This document shows positions 1,973-37,295 of a stretch of 44,570 nt of DNA, piece by piece. Origin of the DNA: a virus. Taxonomy: Duplodnaviria > Heunggongvirae > Uroviricota > Caudoviricetes. The notes under the pieces are model-generated. The model had not been told where the DNA came from and did not search any database. It worked only from the letters and a program-made list of their open reading frames with translations. The position numbers were made by a program, and so were the translations under genes. Each line of letters begins with the position of its first letter. The first letter of the stretch is position 1. Location of the stretch: the IMG/VR virus record IMGVR_UViG_2877973648_000004; one strand, written 5' to 3'.

Positions 1973-2752
1973 TTATGCAGCCCTCACAATGTAGTTAAAT
2001 GCAATGTTTCGCGGGCTACCATCACCGGCGCCGGAACTGACATGATTGGTTCTATCCATTCGTTTACTGTCATTTGTTGTTCCACTCCCATCCTTCCACG
2101 AATACAATAACCCGCCATCGCCAATGCTCAACTGCACCGCAAATACGGATGAACCGGATGAATAAACATCTCCAGCCATGAGTGGGTTCCCTGTCCATCC
2201 ATGCATTTCATGGTTATGTTCAAGGATAGATGCTGCCTGACTTGAAAGCAGCAGTCTCGCGGAATCAACACCTCGCCCATCATCCCACCCGCGAATAAAC
2301 TCACCGCGCAAATCCGGTAATTTTAACTTTGGGTAAGCCTTTGCCAGTTTTGGGTACTCTTCGGCAGAAAAAGGTGCACCGTTGCATTTCAGCCAGCCTG
2401 TTGGTGGTGTGGCTGAAGGCCACGGAACAGGCACACCAACGGGTAACGCTGAGCCTTCTCCCAAACCAAGGTTTGTGAGAGCCGTAGAAATCGCCGCTGC
2501 ACCATCTGATTTGATATCGGCAAATGGGTTTGCACGGCTCAGTGTGAGTTTTTGAATGGCTTTTAAAACCTGAGTCATATCGTTAATGTCGAGCGCCAAT
2601 CCTGCTGACTCTACGATATGCGCTAACTCTTCCTGCATGGCATTAAACGCTGCTGCCCGCAGCCTCGTTGCGGCAATACCACCAGCAACACTTCCATCAG
2701 TATATTTGCCATCCTGCGTTGCAGTGGCTTCGACTTGCCCGATTCGGAGCAT
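1973..2752 (-). CDS. Tail fibre protein (constant N-terminus ~2470-2752 plus invertible variable C-terminus)
   Basis: Position after baseplate genes; crossover site falls ~95 codons into the ORF; Gly/Ser-rich C-terminal region. Confidence 0.75.
   Translation of the reverse strand: MLRIGQVEATATQDGKYTDGSVAGGIAATRLRAAAFNAMQEELAHIVESAGLALDINDMTQVLKAIQKLTLSRANPFADIKSDGAAAISTALTNLGLGEGSALPVGVPVPWPSATPPTGWLKCNGAPFSAEEYPKLAKAYPKLKLPDLRGEFIRGWDDGRGVDSARLLLSSQAASILEHNHEMHGWTGNPLMAGDVYSSGSSVFAVQLSIGDGGLLYSWKDGSGTTNDSKRMDRTNHVSSGAGDGSPRNIAFNYIVRAA
2456..2481. repeat. Invertase crossover site (right), inverted relative to 609-634
   Basis: ttctcccaaaccaaggtttgtgagag; lies inside the tail-fibre ORF at the GLGE codons, which are also encoded at the left site. 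Confidence 0.65.
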
Positions 2753-2803
2753 AGTTAATCCTCACTTAGTGTTAAGCGATAAAATCAGAGGGGGAAATAT
2801 CAG

Positions 2804-3397
2804 TTATGAATAATTGAAAATGATGTTCAGATGGGATGGGGCAATTTTGTTGATTGAACACTCCAGTTGTTTATTGCCCCACGATGCGAGCGGATCTCCG
2901 CAGTAGGACGCGCCAGCAAGCGAATACTTGATCGTTGTTTGTGGCGCATTTATCCGCCAGGTAAATGGCCACTCGTCACCGTTAAGCGCATCACCGCATA
3001 CTGACATGCCACTCATAGCGGGCCGGAACTGTGTGATAGTGATGGTATAACCAAGAGCTGCAGCCACCCGGATGTAATAATCGCGGTTCAGGCCGCCGGT
3101 GCTGATTAACTTTGCCACCACGGCGCGCTGGCGATCGCTGACGCCACCGGATTCACCAATCGCACAATCATCTGGTAACCCCAGAGAGCTTTCCCATTCT
3201 GACAACATTACCGTCGCTGTAGGGGGAAAAGCACCAGTAATCAGGCTTTGCGCATCGTTGTCAGAACGCTGAAACGCGCTGCCCAGTGCCCGTAATACCG
3301 CAGCCTGTACCGTTTTTTGCGATCTGGGCCACGCCCTGCCCGTCGGCAGCAACGCGCCAAGCGCACCGGCATAATCATTTTTTGAAAAGAGGCTCAT
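2804..3397 (-). CDS. Baseplate/tail protein (Mu gp48-like)
   Basis: 197 aa, between baseplate J-like gene and fibre gene; start overlaps the upstream gene end. Confidence 0.5.
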   Translation of the reverse strand: MSLFSKNDYAGALGALLPTGRAWPRSQKTVQAAVLRALGSAFQRSDNDAQSLITGAFPPTATVMLSEWESSLGLPDDCAIGESGGVSDRQRAVVAKLISTGGLNRDYYIRVAAALGYTITITQFRPAMSGMSVCGDALNGDEWPFTWRINAPQTTIKYSLAGASYCGDPLASWGNKQLECSINKIAPSHLNIIFNYS

Positions 3398-22530: not shown

Positions 22531-22935
22531 TTAGTCGAACATTTTATCAAGTTGCTTAGCAAGAGCTCGGTTAAACAGCTCCTTCGAAACTGTCATCAGC
22601 GTGCCCATACTGGCATCTTTGAATCCGGTTTTTAATGTTGCCCAAACCTCTTTGTTACGGAGAGCATCCAAGAAGTCATGCCCCATCGCGGTCAATCGCA
22701 AGGGCATTACAGCCCAGTGAGTCATTCCGTCTAAAGACTGAATAGCACCAAAGCCGGGCTCCCCATCACTCCTGATAATCAGCCCTCTATCCTCAAGCAA
22801 ACGCATATGAAACACAAATGTGTCAGTTTCACAATTGAACCCTAAATCATTTAATCGAATAATATCGGTATCAGGTGAATCCGATGCCTCGAAAGCCTCG
22901 AGCAAACCTTTAAGGTATTCTTGATCTATTTGCAT
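22531..22935 (-). CDS. Hypothetical protein (AT-rich moron after lysis cassette)
   Basis: 134 aa, GGAGGGG RBS, visibly lower GC than flanking genes, own terminator. Confidence 0.45.
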   Translation of the reverse strand: MQIDQEYLKGLLEAFEASDSPDTDIIRLNDLGFNCETDTFVFHMRLLEDRGLIIRSDGEPGFGAIQSLDGMTHWAVMPLRLTAMGHDFLDALRNKEVWATLKTGFKDASMGTLMTVSKELFNRALAKQLDKMFD

Positions 22936-22967: not shown

Positions 22968-23438
22968 TCAATTTAAGCACTGCTCTTTGATGTATTCCTG
23001 CAAATATCCAACCTGTTTCGTCACTGTGACGATTCGCTCTCTGAGGGTGAAATAATCCCGTTCAGCGGAGTCAGTAAGTCGGGGGCCGGTAACATCGCCC
23101 AGGCCGCCGGTGCTGGTCGCTCCGTTCGCGGGACATCTGGCGTTGACGTGCAGCCCACACTTGCCAGTGCGAACACAACGCTGCAAATCATCAAGCTGCT
23201 TTTTAGCATCAGCTAAGTCCTTCGTGTATTTGGCATCCAGCACCGCTGCATCACGCTGGCGGATCTGCATGTCTTTGATGGTGGCGTTCGCCTGGTTAAG
23301 ATTCTTAATGGCTTTATCGCGCTGGTCTTTGTAGGTGATGGCGTTGCCGCGGTAGTGGTTCACGAGGAGCGCCAGCACGCCGATTAACGCCACCACAATC
23401 AGTTGCAGCCAGTAACGCCTTAGCAGCGCGGTAATCAC
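22968..23438 (-). CDS. Rz-like i-spanin
   Basis: 156 aa, N-terminal TM helix, coiled-coil rest; follows endolysin with overlapping stop/start. Confidence 0.65.
   Translation of the reverse strand: MITALLRRYWLQLIVVALIGVLALLVNHYRGNAITYKDQRDKAIKNLNQANATIKDMQIRQRDAAVLDAKYTKDLADAKKQLDDLQRCVRTGKCGLHVNARCPANGATSTGGLGDVTGPRLTDSAERDYFTLRERIVTVTKQVGYLQEYIKEQCLN
23021..23209 (-). CDS. Rz1-like o-spanin embedded in Rz in +1 frame
   Basis: 62 aa with lipoprotein-like signal ending ...ALASVGC and Pro-rich mature part, nested inside Rz. Confidence 0.55.
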   Translation of the reverse strand: MLKSSLMICSVVFALASVGCTSTPDVPRTERPAPAAWAMLPAPDLLTPLNGIISPSESESSQ

Positions 23439-23875
23439 GACAGGAACAGAGCGCGCTCCGCCTCACGCCGACGGGTCAGCCCGTTCAGGACTTTGCCACC
23501 AGCTTTATTCCAGCGCAGGAACTCATCGGCAGCGCCAGCGTAATCACCGGCGTTGAGTTTTCGCAGAAGGGTCGATGTCGACAGTGACCGGGCGCCGAGG
23601 TTGTAAGTGAACGACACCAGAGCATCGAATTGCCCCTGAGTCAGGTCAACTTTGACCAGGCGGGACACGTCGTTTTCATAGCTGACCAGCCCGGTCTTCA
23701 GCAGGCGTTCTGCAGTTTCCTGCTTAATCATCATCCCGGCTCGGATCGGTTTGCCGTCGACAGGCTTGGTCCAGCCATAGCCGATCGTCCACACTCCGAC
23801 GCTGTCCTGATACGCGGTGAGCTTGCAGCCTTCGAACTGCTTGATCAGGGCAATGCCTTTATCACTGATTTGCAT
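23435..23875 (-). CDS. Endolysin (lysozyme-like)
   Basis: 146 aa with FEGCKLTAYQD and GYGWT motifs typical of phage lysozymes; between holin and Rz. Confidence 0.75.
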   Translation of the reverse strand: MQISDKGIALIKQFEGCKLTAYQDSVGVWTIGYGWTKPVDGKPIRAGMMIKQETAERLLKTGLVSYENDVSRLVKVDLTQGQFDALVSFTYNLGARSLSTSTLLRKLNAGDYAGAADEFLRWNKAGGKVLNGLTRRREAERALFLS

Positions 23876-24179
23876 TCTTCATCCCCGTCAGTCGTTCCCA
23901 GAAGTACGTCAGTGCCACGGAGCCCATCGCCCCGCTGATACCAGACGTAACCAGAATCATGTAAAGGCTCAGCCCACTTTCAACGCTGATCAGTCCACCA
24001 ATGAGACCGGTAAAGCCGGACACTGCAATTTGTGCCAGCGCGTTGATCCAGCTCCAGGTGGCTTTGTTCTGCTTAACGTCAATAAGGTATCGGACCAAGC
24101 CGCCCCAGCATGACAGAGCAAGGACAATCAGCCATGACACTCCGGCAATGCTTTCTTTATCTTGCATACGTTTAGCCAT
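23862..24179 (-). CDS. Holin (possible dual-start MAKRM)
   Basis: About 105 aa from GGAGG-ATG; three hydrophobic helices; overlaps the endolysin start. Confidence 0.65.
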   Translation of the reverse strand: MAKRMQDKESIAGVSWLIVLALSCWGGLVRYLIDVKQNKATWSWINALAQIAVSGFTGLIGGLISVESGLSLYMILVTSGISGAMGSVALTYFWERLTGMKNANQ

Positions 24180-24400
24180 ATCACCTCCGAAAGAACGGGG
24201 TGCTGTTTGTAGTAAGGGATCAGGCCCTCGGGACGATTTAACAAGAAGGCATGTCGATGATGGTTCCCGTGAGCCTGAAATAGAAAGCCCCAGCAAATGC
24301 CTAGGCTAAATGAGGTGCCAGATCATATATCTGGCCGTATAACCTTGCGTTTGGTATTATTAAATCGCCAAAAGTAACCCTTCAAACACAAGGATTTAAA

Positions 24401-24931
24401 ATGACAAAAAGGAAGTACCGATTTTATCATGCGGACAGGGGTAACTTGCTGAACCCTGACATGACAATAATCCCTGTAAATGGCCTCTCTTCATTTGGAA
24501 AGCATTATCTCTCCCGGATAAATAGTGGAAATATGAGCGACGTGCTAGACGAAAATGTACAAAGAGAGATGCTGTATGAAAATGTGCGGATGGAAAATTT
24601 CCCATCCCGCCCAAGCCGATTCTCGTGCCTTTTTGGTGCGAACTCCATTCCTGAAGCGGAAAGCTTCGCCAGAAAGATAATCCCGCAACCGACCACCCCA
24701 ATTAATATTTATGAAGTTTTTACTGAAAATTTTGTGATTCTCGATATGAATTGGATGGATTACATAACAACAGATTTCGGTAGTAGGGTTGAATATGCCC
24801 GGCAGTACTGGTATTCATCAATTACCCAGCACGCCCCACTTACCGGCGATAGGATGATACCAACCCTGGAAGTCCTGCTGCCGCTTCCCGTGGAAGTAGG
24901 CAAGCAAGTCAGTACTGTCGCTTTTGATTAA
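24401..24931 (+). CDS. Hypothetical cargo protein (AT-rich, opposite strand to the late operon)
   Basis: 176 aa, AAGGA RBS 7 nt before ATG, lower GC; between the Q/terminator region and the lysis genes. Confidence 0.5.
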   Translation: MTKRKYRFYHADRGNLLNPDMTIIPVNGLSSFGKHYLSRINSGNMSDVLDENVQREMLYENVRMENFPSRPSRFSCLFGANSIPEAESFARKIIPQPTTPINIYEVFTENFVILDMNWMDYITTDFGSRVEYARQYWYSSITQHAPLTGDRMIPTLEVLLPLPVEVGKQVSTVAFD

Positions 24932-25100
24932 TCTGACAGTTCTGCTCAGGGAAATGGGCCAAAGGTTTATGTAAAGTCCAAAGCACTTCGGAAAGGATAG
25001 CTTTATATAGCTCACCATCATTTGCATGATAGCGAAACCTTTCAGAAGGTGAGATTTCGAAAAGTACCTTTCCCTCATCTGAAACAATTCGGACTTTCAT
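24909..25100 (-). CDS. Small hypothetical protein convergent with the cargo gene
   Basis: 63 aa with GGAGGAAAG RBS; 3' end overlaps the 176-aa gene by about 23 nt. Confidence 0.35.
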   Translation of the reverse strand: MKVRIVSDEGKVLFEISPSERFRYHANDGELYKAILSEVLWTLHKPLAHFPEQNCQINQKRQY

Positions 25101-25451
25101 CTTTCCTCCAAATTAGAAGCTACTGATTCAGTTATTACTTACTCCAGATACGACAAAGCCCCACCATTTCTGGCAGGGCTAGATTATTAAGCTGTGTGTC
25201 GAAGTGACCACTCTTAACACGTTAAACTAAAAAATGCGGACCGCACTAGCATTTTTTTAATTATTTTTGCCTACTAACGACTGCATCCATCTCAAGGCGA
25301 ACATCCAGCATTGACAGACACCCCTCAATAAACCCTTCAGCAAGCAGCATTTCTATGCGTATCTGCTTTTCGCTTTTCTTCCGGTGCTTCGCCTTCTGCC
25401 GTTTTGAATACCGTAGAATATAATGCCCAACCAACAAATGATTGTCTGCGG

Positions 25452-25485
25452 CCGAAATAAAAAAGCCCGAGACAAGCGGGCAATA
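25452..25485 (-). terminator. Rho-independent terminator (candidate tR'-like), copy 1
   Basis: Minus strand gcccg-cttgtct-cgggc followed by ttttttattt. Confidence 0.5.
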
Positions 25486-25557: not shown

Positions 25558-25592
25558 ATAAAAAAGCCCCGCACGATGGCGAGGCTTGGCAT
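25558..25592 (-). terminator. Rho-independent terminator, copy 2 (near-duplicate flank)
   Basis: Minus strand GC-rich stem followed by ttttttattt; same aaataaaaaagccc flank as copy 1. Confidence 0.45.
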
Positions 25593-25666
25593 TCATTCAT
25601 GTCACACACAACAACGGCAACATATACGATTTATTCTGCTCATTTGTTCATTGAAAAGCAAGCTCG

Positions 25667-26149
25667 TTATGAGGATTTTTTTGCAATTTTCCTCACATTT
25701 TCGCGATTGTTAAACGCATTTTGCAGCGGTTGGTACAAGCAGAACAGTGAGGCATTGATGATTTGCTTCACCTCTCTACGGATTGTCGAGATGCTTGGGT
25801 GTTTATACTGATTTCCGCCACGCGTCTTCATCAGGCGAGGCTTACTTACTGTATGCTGCCATGATGCAATTCGGATCTCGCTGGAGTTACAAACGTAGTA
25901 GGCGAAGACAACCCGCCAGGCATTTTCATCCACATTCTTCAGATAGTGACGAATGACAGCATCAATGAGCATCCCGTCATCATCACTACATACCGGTCGT
26001 GATGCTTGCTGGGGCTCAACGGTAGCCATGAATCTGGCAATCATGTTGATCATCGCTTTATCAATCTTGCCGGTCTGGCACCATGCGCCCCACAACTGGA
26101 GCCACTGGTCTACCCATTGATGCTGGTCGTTGGTTAATTCCAGTTTCAT
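25667..26149 (-). CDS. Late-gene antiterminator Q-like protein
   Basis: N-terminal 95 aa show LWGAWC...CSDDDGML...YYV pattern I recall from QuuD/P22 gp23-type Q proteins; located between nin genes and lysis genes. Confidence 0.55.
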   Translation of the reverse strand: MKLELTNDQHQWVDQWLQLWGAWCQTGKIDKAMINMIARFMATVEPQQASRPVCSDDDGMLIDAVIRHYLKNVDENAWRVVFAYYVCNSSEIRIASWQHTVSKPRLMKTRGGNQYKHPSISTIRREVKQIINASLFCLYQPLQNAFNNRENVRKIAKKSS

Positions 26150-35465: not shown

Positions 35466-35849
35466 ATGAGAAAAGAAGAACCCAACCTCGTTCTGGTGGA
35501 GCGCCTTACTGAGATCACTGATCGCGGCGTTACCAAAGCAGACATGGCAAGAATAGCTGGAGTCACCCCTCAGGCCGTAAACGGCTGGTTCAAAAAAGGC
35601 GTGATTAGTAAGAAATCGGCACTGGCCATAGCCGACGCTGTTGGTATTTCTGTCGCCTGGCTACTCGGTGAAGACGTTGGGGAGAAAGACGGTCTCAAAC
35701 CGGACGAACAGCGTTTGCTCGAGCTCTACCGCCAGCTGCCAGAAGAAGAGCAACAGAACATGCTCCGCATCTTTTCGATACGTCTTAAGGAACTGGATGA
35801 GCTGTATGAGAAGTACATGAAGGGGCGGATTCGCTCGCAGGGGGACTGA
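35466..35849 (+). CDS. CI-like repressor, short HTH-only form (no LexA-like peptidase domain)
   Basis: 127 aa; HTH-like segment VTKADMARIAGVTPQAVNGWFKKG; too short to carry a peptidase domain. Confidence 0.65.
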   Translation: MRKEEPNLVLVERLTEITDRGVTKADMARIAGVTPQAVNGWFKKGVISKKSALAIADAVGISVAWLLGEDVGEKDGLKPDEQRLLELYRQLPEEEQQNMLRIFSIRLKELDELYEKYMKGRIRSQGD

Positions 35850-35990
35850 ATCGCTTTAGGTTTGTCCTGAATTTTTAGTTCCCATGAGACAATGATGTCT
35901 TTACTGGGGGGTGATTCCGCCATTTATGTTAGATTGAAAAAAACTATCAATTTAATTAATATTTATCACTACTACACGGGATGTTTTGCA

Positions 35991-37295
35991 ATGACAGCTG
36001 AGATTGTTGTAATAAATAATACTGGAATCGCCCTTGCTGCTGACTCTGCAGTCACCACAGAGCATAATAGATTAGTAAAAATAAATAATAGTGCGGAAAA
36101 ACTATTCGAACTATCTAAACACCATCCCGTGGGGATCATGATTTATAATAATGCGACACTGGGTGGCGCACCGTGGGAACTTATAATTAAATCCTATAGA
36201 AAACAATTGGGGAAAACTAGTTTCCCTACCATTAAAGAATATGTTAATGACTTTGTAAAATTCATCAATGGTAACTCAGACCTTATAACAAATGAAATGA
36301 GAGAGGCTTGCGTTATAAACCTTGTTGTTGATAACCTCAAAGGTTTGATGAGATACATTAATGATAATAATGTAGTAAACTATTTAACAATGAACCCCGC
36401 CGTTGAACTCGACAATGTTATTTTTCAAAACATAGTTAAGCAAGCCTTTGATTTAGAGATAGGAATCTTAAGGAATAATCTCTTTTTCGAAGGGTTTGAT
36501 ACAGAAGAGTTTAATGATGCTTTAGCATATATACAAGATTTAATATCGCCATACATTTCATCAATTATTGTTCTTGATAACTGTGAAAATATACAGCAAG
36601 AGCTTATGGAAAAAGTCATATTATATTCCACTTGTTTAATTTTCAAAGTCCATGCTAGTCGTACATATTCAGGGATTGTTATAACAGGTTATGGAGAGGA
36701 AGAATATTACCCTTCCATTTGCACTCTTCATATCTACGGCATTTTTAAAAACAAATTGATGATCCATAATATTGATGAGAAATCCCATAATGAGGTAACC
36801 AATATGGGGTTTGTTATACCATTTGCTCAAGAAGATGAAGTAGTAACTTTCATTGATGGGTGCAACCCTAACATCATTAATTTTAACAGAACTCTTACAG
36901 AGGAAGTTTTTGATCGGCTTAATCATTATGTTTCTAGCAATATTTTCCCTGCAATGAACAATGGAGTACTAGCCAATCACTTCTCCAGTGAAATTGAGGA
37001 ACTCAAAAACGTACTTTTACAAGATCACGATACTAAACTTGAAAGCTATATTGTTAATAACCATACAAATAAAATGATATCGATGTTGCAATCACTTGGG
37101 AAGGCAGATCTTGCGTATATGGCCGAATCATTAGTGAACATCACTGCATTCAAAAGAAAAGTATCACATGATTATGAAACTGTCGGTGGGCCTGTTGATG
37201 TCGCTGTGATATCAAAAGTTGATGGATTTGTTTGGGTAAATCGTAAACACTACTTCCCTAAAGAGCTAAACTCTAACTACTTTAATCGTCAATAA
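35991..37295 (+). CDS. Large AT-rich protein with N-terminal proteasome-beta/HslV-like Ntn-hydrolase domain
   Basis: Track ORF 35892-37295; from internal Met the sequence is M-TAEIVVINNTGIALAADSAVT...EKLFEL...VGIMIYNNATLGG, matching proteasome-beta Thr1/Gly11/Asp17/Lys~33 spacing; very low GC. Confidence 0.5.
   Translation: MTAEIVVINNTGIALAADSAVTTEHNRLVKINNSAEKLFELSKHHPVGIMIYNNATLGGAPWELIIKSYRKQLGKTSFPTIKEYVNDFVKFINGNSDLITNEMREACVINLVVDNLKGLMRYINDNNVVNYLTMNPAVELDNVIFQNIVKQAFDLEIGILRNNLFFEGFDTEEFNDALAYIQDLISPYISSIIVLDNCENIQQELMEKVILYSTCLIFKVHASRTYSGIVITGYGEEEYYPSICTLHIYGIFKNKLMIHNIDEKSHNEVTNMGFVIPFAQEDEVVTFIDGCNPNIINFNRTLTEEVFDRLNHYVSSNIFPAMNNGVLANHFSSEIEELKNVLLQDHDTKLESYIVNNHTNKMISMLQSLGKADLAYMAESLVNITAFKRKVSHDYETVGGPVDVAVISKVDGFVWVNRKHYFPKELNSNYFNRQ

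Follow-up and report, generated by a model that had tools for sequence, protein, structure and literature searches.

We report a two-gene mobile module carried by temperate Enterobacterales phages, found in a 44,570-nucleotide stretch of viral DNA (IMG/VR record IMGVR_UViG_2877973648_000004) that we refer to, at its full length, as the window. The module consists of a gene for a 176-amino acid (aa) protein with the DUF2441/BC2332-like ADP-ribosyltransferase (ART) fold and a convergent 63-aa gene that overlaps its 3' end. The window is a lambdoid prophage of Escherichia coli, with 100% identity to strain AREA_C483 across the queried stretch, and its late genes lie on the minus strand in the order antiterminator Q, cassette region, LydA-type holin, lysozyme, Rz/Rz1, and a DUF2513 gene. 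An earlier reading of the letters (the original prediction) had already pointed to the two genes; the main feature, beyond what was then seen, is their pairing as one conserved mobile module. We are highly confident of the protein identity and of the conserved pairing. As a full mechanism we propose, as plausible rather than probable, that the ART-fold protein would be an immunity effector expressed in the lysogen, and the 63-aa protein its late-expressed antidote.

The 176-aa gene (24401–24931, + strand) lies antisense to the late operon, with a ribosome-binding site (RBS) of its own, as had been predicted (AAGGA at 24390–24394, 6 nt before the ATG). Its product had not been recognized, yet profile and structure comparison assign it to the DUF2441/BC2332-like ART fold. 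Pfam DUF2441 (PF10386) matches it at 33.5 bits against a gathering cut-off of 25 (E 4.9e-8), a match limited to profile positions 49–91 of 141 (residues 51–91 of the protein); 26 of the 38 subfamily members likewise match this model. The protein also matches phrog_5663 (4e-27) and BC2332 of Bacillus cereus (PDB 2AUA), the solved DUF2441 structure, the latter at 1e-6 for the single protein and at 8e-12 as a profile. An AlphaFold2 (AF2) model made with 38 homologues reaches a predicted local distance difference test (pLDDT) score of 95; it has the same fold as 2AUA, and structure comparison recognizes in it the split beta-sheet core of ARTs. Pfam puts DUF2441 in its ART clan (PMC7955679), SCOP lists ‘BC2332-like’ (d.166.1.6) among the ADP-ribosylation families (PMC3000352), and ProFunc gave for 2AUA matches to the catalytic sites of three toxins, namely diphtheria toxin, exotoxin A, and cholix toxin (PMC3024214). 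The DUF2441 family is sizeable, at ~650 clusters of 50% identity, and a Pfam search with all 38 homologues at E-values up to 10 gave no other ART-clan family.

In a large protein collection, 350 contigs encode the exact 176-aa protein and 596 the exact 63-aa protein, with variants in Salmonella and Enterobacter kobei, and a plasmid search retrieved only remote DUF2441 relatives (27–38% identity). Inspection of the two sequences found no signal peptide or hydrophobic segment in either protein; both are predicted to be cytoplasmic because a hydrophobic N-terminus is absent. The ART homologues of Salmonella (L005–L008 and L026) are annotated as 218–223 aa with an N-terminal extension, and the conserved start aligns at their Met45. 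A 141-aa variant on a Photorhabdus-like viral contig (P0020; L030:4998–5423, + strand) is without the helical insert (about residues 24–60), a deletion that removes the otherwise invariant F32, G33, Y36, R55, and E56; it retains a convergent partner (profile E 5.8e-6) and represents a minimal form or else a copy in decay.

In the standard ART triad, strand 1 supplies H or R, strand 2 supplies Y or S-T-S, and strand 5 supplies E. In the present family the site is probably of the H-F/Y-E type, formed in the model by H10, F78 with F89, and E157, a reading we adopt because H10, F78, and E157 are invariant, and because E157 is retained and E105 lost in a distant homologue. Across the 38 homologues the invariant residues include H10 (motif FYHADR, strand 1), S72–R73, F78 (strand 2), and E157 (motif LEVL, start of strand 5), and the AF2 strands that hold the three triad positions span residues 6–12, 76–80, and 156–161. 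Besides H10 and E157, the invariant polar residues of the subfamily include D12, R55, E56, S72, R73, D115, and D120. F89 does not vary within the close subfamily and is replaced only by other aromatic residues (F/Y/H) among the 38 members; it lies 11 residues from F78, and the two active-site Tyr residues of diphtheria toxin and PARP1 are likewise 11 residues apart. E157 is retained even in a 25%-identical E. coli homologue (strain C8), where E105 is lost. We had considered E105 as the active-site Glu and rejected it, as it is retained neither in BC2332 nor in the C8 homologue.

The partner gene (24909–25100, − strand) has late-operon sense and belongs to an unnamed family. It had been described as an open reading frame (ORF) with a strong RBS that converges on the 176-aa gene and overlaps its 3' end, and all of this holds, with GGAGG at 25105–25109 and an overlap of 23 nt. 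Homologues of 61–69 aa (103 aa in one variant) converge on the 3' end of an ART homologue in Salmonella, Erwinia, Hafnia, Enterobacter, two Serratia species, Providencia, and the Photorhabdus-like contig; overlaps across the homologous loci range from 4 to 41 nt by gene calls and translations, and the adjoining ART homologues are only 47–58% identical. A family profile search finds the small gene in each of these loci and nowhere else within them. Between E. coli and Salmonella, 7 of the 8 differences in the small gene fall at third codon positions, with a ratio of nonsynonymous to synonymous substitution rates (dN/dS) of 0.03; between Erwinia and Hafnia 21 of 28 do so (dN/dS 0.105), and the small gene and the ART gene diverge in step. 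To judge from these substitution patterns, the 63-aa ORF is a real gene under strong purifying selection.

The 63-aa family comprises 13 clusters and has neither a Pfam domain nor a name. AF2 predicts a beta-hairpin (residues 3–16), a helix (29–44), and a disordered tail, at pLDDT 66, with no helix-turn-helix. The gene is unannotated in the RefSeq records of both E. coli genomes (L001 and L002) and is called only sometimes in Salmonella, where it has a GTG start; given the RefSeq records that lack it, current pipelines miss half of the module. The 103-aa variant (P0187) was checked as a candidate for a small gene without an ART and still adjoins a DUF2441 gene.

We have found the pair in at least nine different settings. 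It lies between Q/antiterminator and holin genes, of several Q and holin types, in E. coli (three variants), Salmonella, Enterobacter, and Serratia quinivorans; between lysis and terminase genes in Serratia liquefaciens, Providencia, and the Photorhabdus-like contig; and in a tail operon, between the tube and downstream tail genes of an E217-like myovirus, in Erwinia and Hafnia. The orientation is constant in all Enterobacterales loci examined: the small gene has the sense of the late genes, and the ART gene is antisense to them; nine concordant orientations would have a probability of ~0.004 if orientation were random. A scan of genome contigs gave one locus only, in Hafnia, and a wider homologue alignment gave no usable conserved stretch. 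The S. quinivorans prophage with the ART pair also has, downstream of its lysis genes, a 93-aa gene with the hairpin domain of Acb2/Tad1 (L019:2890–3171, − strand), the family of anti-CBASS and anti-Thoeris sponges.

In the window, the junction is bounded upstream by antiterminator Q (25667–26149, − strand; Pfam PF06530 1.4e-21, phrog_943 3.5e-70) and downstream by the LydA-type holin, the first lysis gene (23862–24179, − strand; Pfam PF16083 2.1e-21, phrog_785), which is followed by the lysozyme gene (23435–23875, − strand). A moron-like insertion had been predicted for this Q-to-lysis junction, where Shiga toxin (Stx) phages hold their toxin genes, and comparison with the empty site of prophage G3/10 confirms it. 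G3/10 is 93.5% identical to the window up to 24294 and 97.2% identical from 25454 on, and the window has ~1.16 kb extra in between (24295–25453); this low-GC (guanine plus cytosine) stretch is an inserted block because it is absent from G3/10 between 93–97% identical flanks. The predicted lower GC is likewise borne out, at 0.43 for the cassette (ART gene 0.44, small ORF 0.40) versus 0.51 for the whole window and 0.55 for the lysis genes; of all 900-bp windows, only 6% reach a level as low as that of the cassette. A direct repeat brackets the block (GAAATAGAAAGCCC at 24277–24290 and GAAATAAAAAAGCCC at 25454–25468), and both of its copies are tails of late-strand terminators.

The block also holds, at 25261–25446 (− strand), a 61-codon 3' remnant of a second antiterminator Q gene, recognized by translation and by its match to Pfam Phage_antitermQ (positions 67–118, 5.5e-13) and annotated as a pseudogene in RefSeq. 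The cassette was therefore imported from a phage in which it directly followed another Q, and the remnant is the recombination footprint of its arrival. Only two of 5426 complete E. coli genomes have the block, those of AREA_C483 and MLI104K1; in MLI104K1 the same Q remnant stands behind a different Q and two tRNA genes, whereas there are no tRNA genes within the window. From the alignment with Salmonella, we take the stretch shared at 90% nucleotide identity, 24259–25161 (0.9 kb), as the core mobile unit. The block has the marks of a moron in the Hendrix/Juhala sense, namely patchy presence, deviating GC, terminators on its flanks, and a promoter-like element that is conserved. When the region was compared with phages by megablast, only Q fragments were returned, and Rfam gave no matches in the cassette.

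Six diverged loci share a set of elements upstream of the ART gene: a late-strand terminator (T2), an inverted repeat, an extended −10 element, a block in the 5' untranslated region (UTR), and the RBS. T2 (24277–24305, − strand), found by terminator scan and RNA folding, closes the cassette at the holin side; its hairpin spans 24289–24305, its U-tract runs to 24277, and its tail is the GAAATAGAAAGCCC copy of the flanking repeat. RNAalifold on nine loci gives T2 nine pairs, five of them with compensatory changes on both sides. The inverted repeat (GCCAGAT-N5-ATCTGGC, 24317–24335), present in eight of nine aligned loci, coincides in part with the −35 position predicted for the ART promoter and may be an operator or an RNA hairpin, between which covariation gives no decision because the repeat arms do not vary. 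The predicted extended −10 of the ART gene (TGGTATTAT, 24352–24360, + strand) is a conserved TGnTAnnnT; five of the six loci have TGnTATnnT, and Enterobacter has TGATAAGGT. It is retained although the coding sequences of those loci are saturated at synonymous sites, and a generic two-hexamer promoter scan does not call it. The conserved 5' UTR block AAATCGCCAAAAGTAAC follows it, and the block AAATCGCCAAAA, between the extended −10 and the RBS, is common to the six loci.

On the other strand, a series of terminators precedes the small gene. The nearest, the terminator-like hairpin T1 (25149–25180, hairpin 25157–25180, − strand; −17.4 kcal/mol, z −2.4, 10 bp, tail UUUGUCGU), sits 56 nt upstream of the small ORF. 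At this position a different hairpin with a U-rich tail occurs in Salmonella, Hafnia, Erwinia, Enterobacter, and S. quinivorans, the tail being a plain T-run in Erwinia, Enterobacter, and S. quinivorans; hairpins of the T1 type thus stand upstream of the small gene in six lineages. The original prediction had placed a bidirectional-looking terminator at about 25236–25258, isolating the unit from the late operon. The terminator scan does find a hairpin there, between an A-run and a T-run (25233–25258), but it is weak (−6.4 kcal/mol for the − strand, −6.8 for the + strand), the weakest of several, and outside the core shared with Salmonella; nor is the unit simply set apart from the late operon, for the ART gene alone is antisense, and the 63-aa gene is late-sense and directly behind late-strand terminators. 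Two others lie further upstream on the − strand: a terminator with a T-tract at the right edge of the block (25454–25481, hairpin 25465–25481), whose tail is the GAAATAAAAAAGCCC repeat copy, and a leader with a tR'-like terminator downstream of Q (25563–25635, hairpin 25564–25587, −15.1 kcal/mol), which is common to the empty-site prophage G3/10. The leader has a sub-threshold Rfam match to the Salmonella small RNA isrJ (25563–25635; 28.3 bits versus 37, E 0.014), and RNAs like isrJ may arise as leader transcripts from lambdoid late promoters.

The late transcript would meet these terminators in turn (25564–25587, 25465–25481, ~25233–25258, and T1), and then T2 past the cassette; in lambdoid late regulation, only Q-modified polymerase would pass them. 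A scan found no promoter-like site upstream of the small ORF inside the conserved unit. The sole weak candidate for a promoter of its own (25183–25210) was rejected, lying upstream of T1 and outside the conserved core. In Enterobacter, a TTGACA...TAATAT promoter and a terminator downstream of Q are followed directly by the small gene, which by this order would be the first late ORF.

We propose that the ART gene would be transcribed in the lysogen from its conserved extended −10 promoter, antisense to the late operon; it is because of this predicted promoter that the protein could be made in the lysogen. There, upon infection by another phage, it may serve as an immunity or exclusion effector that ADP-ribosylates a phage or host target. 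The 63-aa gene most likely belongs to the Q-dependent late transcript; since the conserved unit has no promoter for it and several terminators lie upstream, the small protein would be made only upon Q-modified read-through after induction. The late transcript would then supply the small protein, which would neutralize the ART, and would simultaneously run antisense across the ART gene and lower its expression, with the outcome that the prophage's own lytic cycle would be spared. We make the proposal because the antisense effector-like gene, the overlapping small sense gene, and the predicted mutual antisense transcription match the Tha/Ith and Tai/Ati systems of other prophages.

A number of points weigh against this proposal. 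All of its functional steps are inferred, from catalysis by the ART-fold protein and the times at which the two genes are expressed to the block of the ART by its small partner and any effect against phages; the putative triad was assigned from the order of secondary structure in the model, its first aromatic position is Phe instead of Tyr, and the fold of the small protein alone is predicted at low confidence (pLDDT 66). Distant ART homologues (~40% identity) in Pseudomonas, Brevundimonas, and two metagenome contigs have no detectable homologue of the small protein, their settings being a prophage end, a chromosomal setting, a mobile element, and a Pseudomonas tail operon; as these ARTs stand alone, an antidote is not universally required. 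The two late-strand terminators inside the tail operon of Erwinia and Hafnia would be awkward for phages without antitermination. Neither cassette protein was matched in PADLOC-DB 2.0 (at E-values up to 1) or NCBIfam, or by tblastn in 50,697 sequenced phage genomes, so that all the evidence comes from prophages and metagenomic contigs.

Some of these points lead to other explanations of the pair. The ART fold might be catalytically inactive and bind a ligand or a protein, in a pair whose role is unrelated to ADP-ribosylation; such a pseudo-enzyme is suggested by Phe in place of the canonical Tyr, by the apparent lack of the His in the distant C8 homologue, and by a literature search that found no enzymatic activity reported for any DUF2441 member. 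We nonetheless think it improbable, given the invariance of H10 and E157, with other polar residues, across the 38-member subfamily and the ProFunc template match of 2AUA to the diphtheria toxin catalytic site (PMC3024214). A classical toxin–antitoxin pair, active in addiction or abortive infection, would join a growth-arresting ART to a constitutive, labile 63-aa antitoxin. CmdT is an ART-like toxin of a prophage-associated defense system, the short fold and disordered tail of the partner are typical of antitoxins, and the two genes are strictly co-inherited; the convergent overlap would add antisense-RNA control, like that of the type I pairs of Bacillus prophages. The arrangement of the genes makes this unlikely in our view: the small gene has no recognizable promoter in the conserved unit and has terminators directly upstream, the genes are convergent instead of co-transcribed, and a constant late-operon orientation in about nine settings is not required of a self-contained pair; moreover, the distant ART homologues stand alone.

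The antisense orientation also bears on two readings in which the ART is directed elsewhere. It could serve the phage itself, in counter-defense like AcrIF11 or in host takeover like Alt, ModA, and ModB of T4, with the small protein as a late regulator, activator, or specificity factor. AcrIF11 is an ART borne by phages and plasmids (PMC12421852), and DUF2441-fold proteins occur in lytic or temperate actinophages (e.g. Gordonia phage JuJu, Foldseek E 7e-12). A gene antisense to the late operon would, however, be opposed by late transcription in the lytic cycle, and the small protein has no Pfam domain and, unlike Aca regulators, no helix-turn-helix; we hold this role to be quite unlikely. A lysogenic-conversion toxin against eukaryotic cells, by analogy with Stx, would draw on the position shared with stx in Stx phages, on a fold common to diphtheria, cholera, and pertussis toxins, and on the speculation of the MCSG authors that BC2332 is a possible enterotoxin (PMC3024214). 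The gene differs from stx, however, in running antisense to the Q-driven transcript. Both proteins lack a signal peptide and any hydrophobic segment, a B-subunit or secretion partner is absent, Enterobacterales from plants, insects, and the environment are among the hosts, and the same module stands at tail and terminase junctions. We give this last reading very little credence.

Returning to the proposed immunity module, its upstream segment is shared with other cargo. About 130 bp upstream of the ART gene (24259–24390 of the window), from T2 through the inverted repeat and the extended −10 to the UTR block, recur at 74–82% identity in 261 of 5426 complete E. coli genomes, and in the three examples inspected (L038, L039, and L040) the segment lies at the same Q–holin junction before other cargo; in other E. 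coli prophages, too, this extended −10 element is found at the junction ahead of cargo genes that are unrelated. In strain C8 the cargo is a 170-aa distant DUF2441 homologue (L040:2643–3155, + strand; hhalign 96.9%, E 1.8e-10, 25% identity) that has no Pfam match and has retained the equivalent of E157, while His10 is apparently lost. Its partner is a convergent 76-aa gene (L040:3152–3382, − strand) with a 4-nt overlap and no detectable relationship to the 63-aa family; cargo of this type is present in seven genomes (C8 and six others). A third type pairs an antisense protein of 51–71 aa, rich in Pro and Gln, with an overlapping convergent 189-aa late-sense protein (L038:2643–2798 and 2776–3345; L039:2564–2779 and 2748–3317; + and − strand, respectively), with no Pfam match for either; the 189-aa sequence reads as a multi-pass membrane protein. 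All three cargo types inspected are convergent overlapping pairs, and this suggests that the Q–holin junction is a cargo-exchange slot with a shared promoter/terminator segment.

Further convergent overlapping pairs were noted in late regions of Serratia prophages (L017:7106–7531 and L019:5812–6237) and at L040:1624–2206; they consist of an antisense DUF1883 gene (89 aa) with a 59-aa sense gene, and of an antisense 90-aa gene overlapping a YdfR-family gene. The layout of an antisense gene with an overlapping sense gene seems common. Two other loci of the window are of separate interest. A DUF2513 gene (22531–22935, − strand, phrog_585), in late sense and in a lower-GC stretch, stands between Rz and the next late genes, a position that is another variable slot because KilA-N and other genes occupy it in related prophages. 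A 467-aa ORF (35892–37295, + strand, GC ~0.34) lies directly downstream of a cI-like helix-turn-helix repressor gene (35466–35849), in the position that corresponds to rexAB in lambda; it has no Pfam or PADLOC match and is a candidate for a lysogen-expressed accessory or defense gene.

In the literature searched, the protein family is known, though uncharacterized, and the partner gene, the convergent module, its constant orientation, and the immune/anti-immune link are undescribed. Taken at its widest, and only as a tentative possibility, our account would make DUF2441 the effector of an unrecognized prophage immunity by ADP-ribosylation, with the effector on and the Q-dependent 63-aa antidote off in lysogeny and the reverse at induction, and would make the Q–holin junction a cargo-exchange slot whose shared 130-bp segment drives interchangeable convergent pairs. 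If true, a role in prophage immunity would give DUF2441, for which a crystal structure has existed since 2005, a function and a testable target, and it would extend the ‘noncontiguous operon with self-antidote’, so far known from few cases, to an enzymatic ART effector in Enterobacterales. Antisense late-operon genes whose 3' end overlaps a small sense gene are a possible search signature for more such pairs.

Among known systems, the closest solved structure, BC2332, shares with the cassette protein an N-terminal YH motif and the motif PSRLSCL[FY]AA, but is only 22% identical, has ~50 extra N-terminal residues, has Tyr where the subfamily has Phe78, and is without a known function or partner. 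DarT–DarG, ParT–ParS, MbcT–MbcA, TreX–TriX, and the ART-like defense toxin CmdT are comparable, each pairing such a toxin with a dedicated neutralizing protein, the first four toxins having the ART fold; a pairing of this sort is what we propose by analogy for the cassette; DarTG and CmdTAC act in anti-phage defense. The cassette proteins have no match to the DarT or RES families; Pfam assigns the ART to DUF2441 alone and the small protein to no family. In contrast to DarTG and to RES–Xre/ParST/MbcTA, the cassette partner is neither a macrodomain nor an Xre/ParS protein, and the genes are convergent rather than co-directional. Loci of acr genes usually carry an Aca helix-turn-helix regulator, whereas the small protein of the cassette has no helix-turn-helix. 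AcrIF11 is, like the cassette protein, a small single-domain ART on mobile elements; this ART of phages and plasmids ADP-ribosylates the type I-F CRISPR complex in counter-defense (PMC12421852).

The layout of the cassette is more nearly that of two prophage immunity systems. In TaiEcA/AtiEcA of the lambdoid phage phi80, as described in the accessible part of the report, an immune gene is likewise antisense in a Q-controlled late operon, with a small anti-immune gene adjacent to it in late sense, and Q expression lowers Tai (PMC11364771). Tai differs in that it blocks tail assembly and is not an ART, and the same part of the report does not mention a 3' overlap or flanking terminators such as the cassette has (PMC11364771). 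We found no homology to Tai or Ati, and neither cassette protein has a tblastn match in the 50,697 phage records. Tha/Ith of Staphylococcus aureus prophages (Rostol et al. 2024) is also the same in kind, an effector with a small (~65-aa) overlapping gene on the opposite strand in a ‘noncontiguous operon’, where the antisense gene encodes an inhibitor that prevents autoimmunity on induction (PMC11087260). No homology to Tha was found, and Pfam gives no HEPN match for the cassette proteins. The Tha effector, a HEPN RNase, is encoded in the cI (lysogeny) operon, and ith is transcribed from a weak constitutive promoter of its own, whereas the cassette effector is ART-like and lies inside the late operon, and its small gene appears to depend on Q read-through. 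The cassette nonetheless has the layout of a noncontiguous operon, with two genes on opposite strands that overlap, and with the partner inside a larger phage operon.

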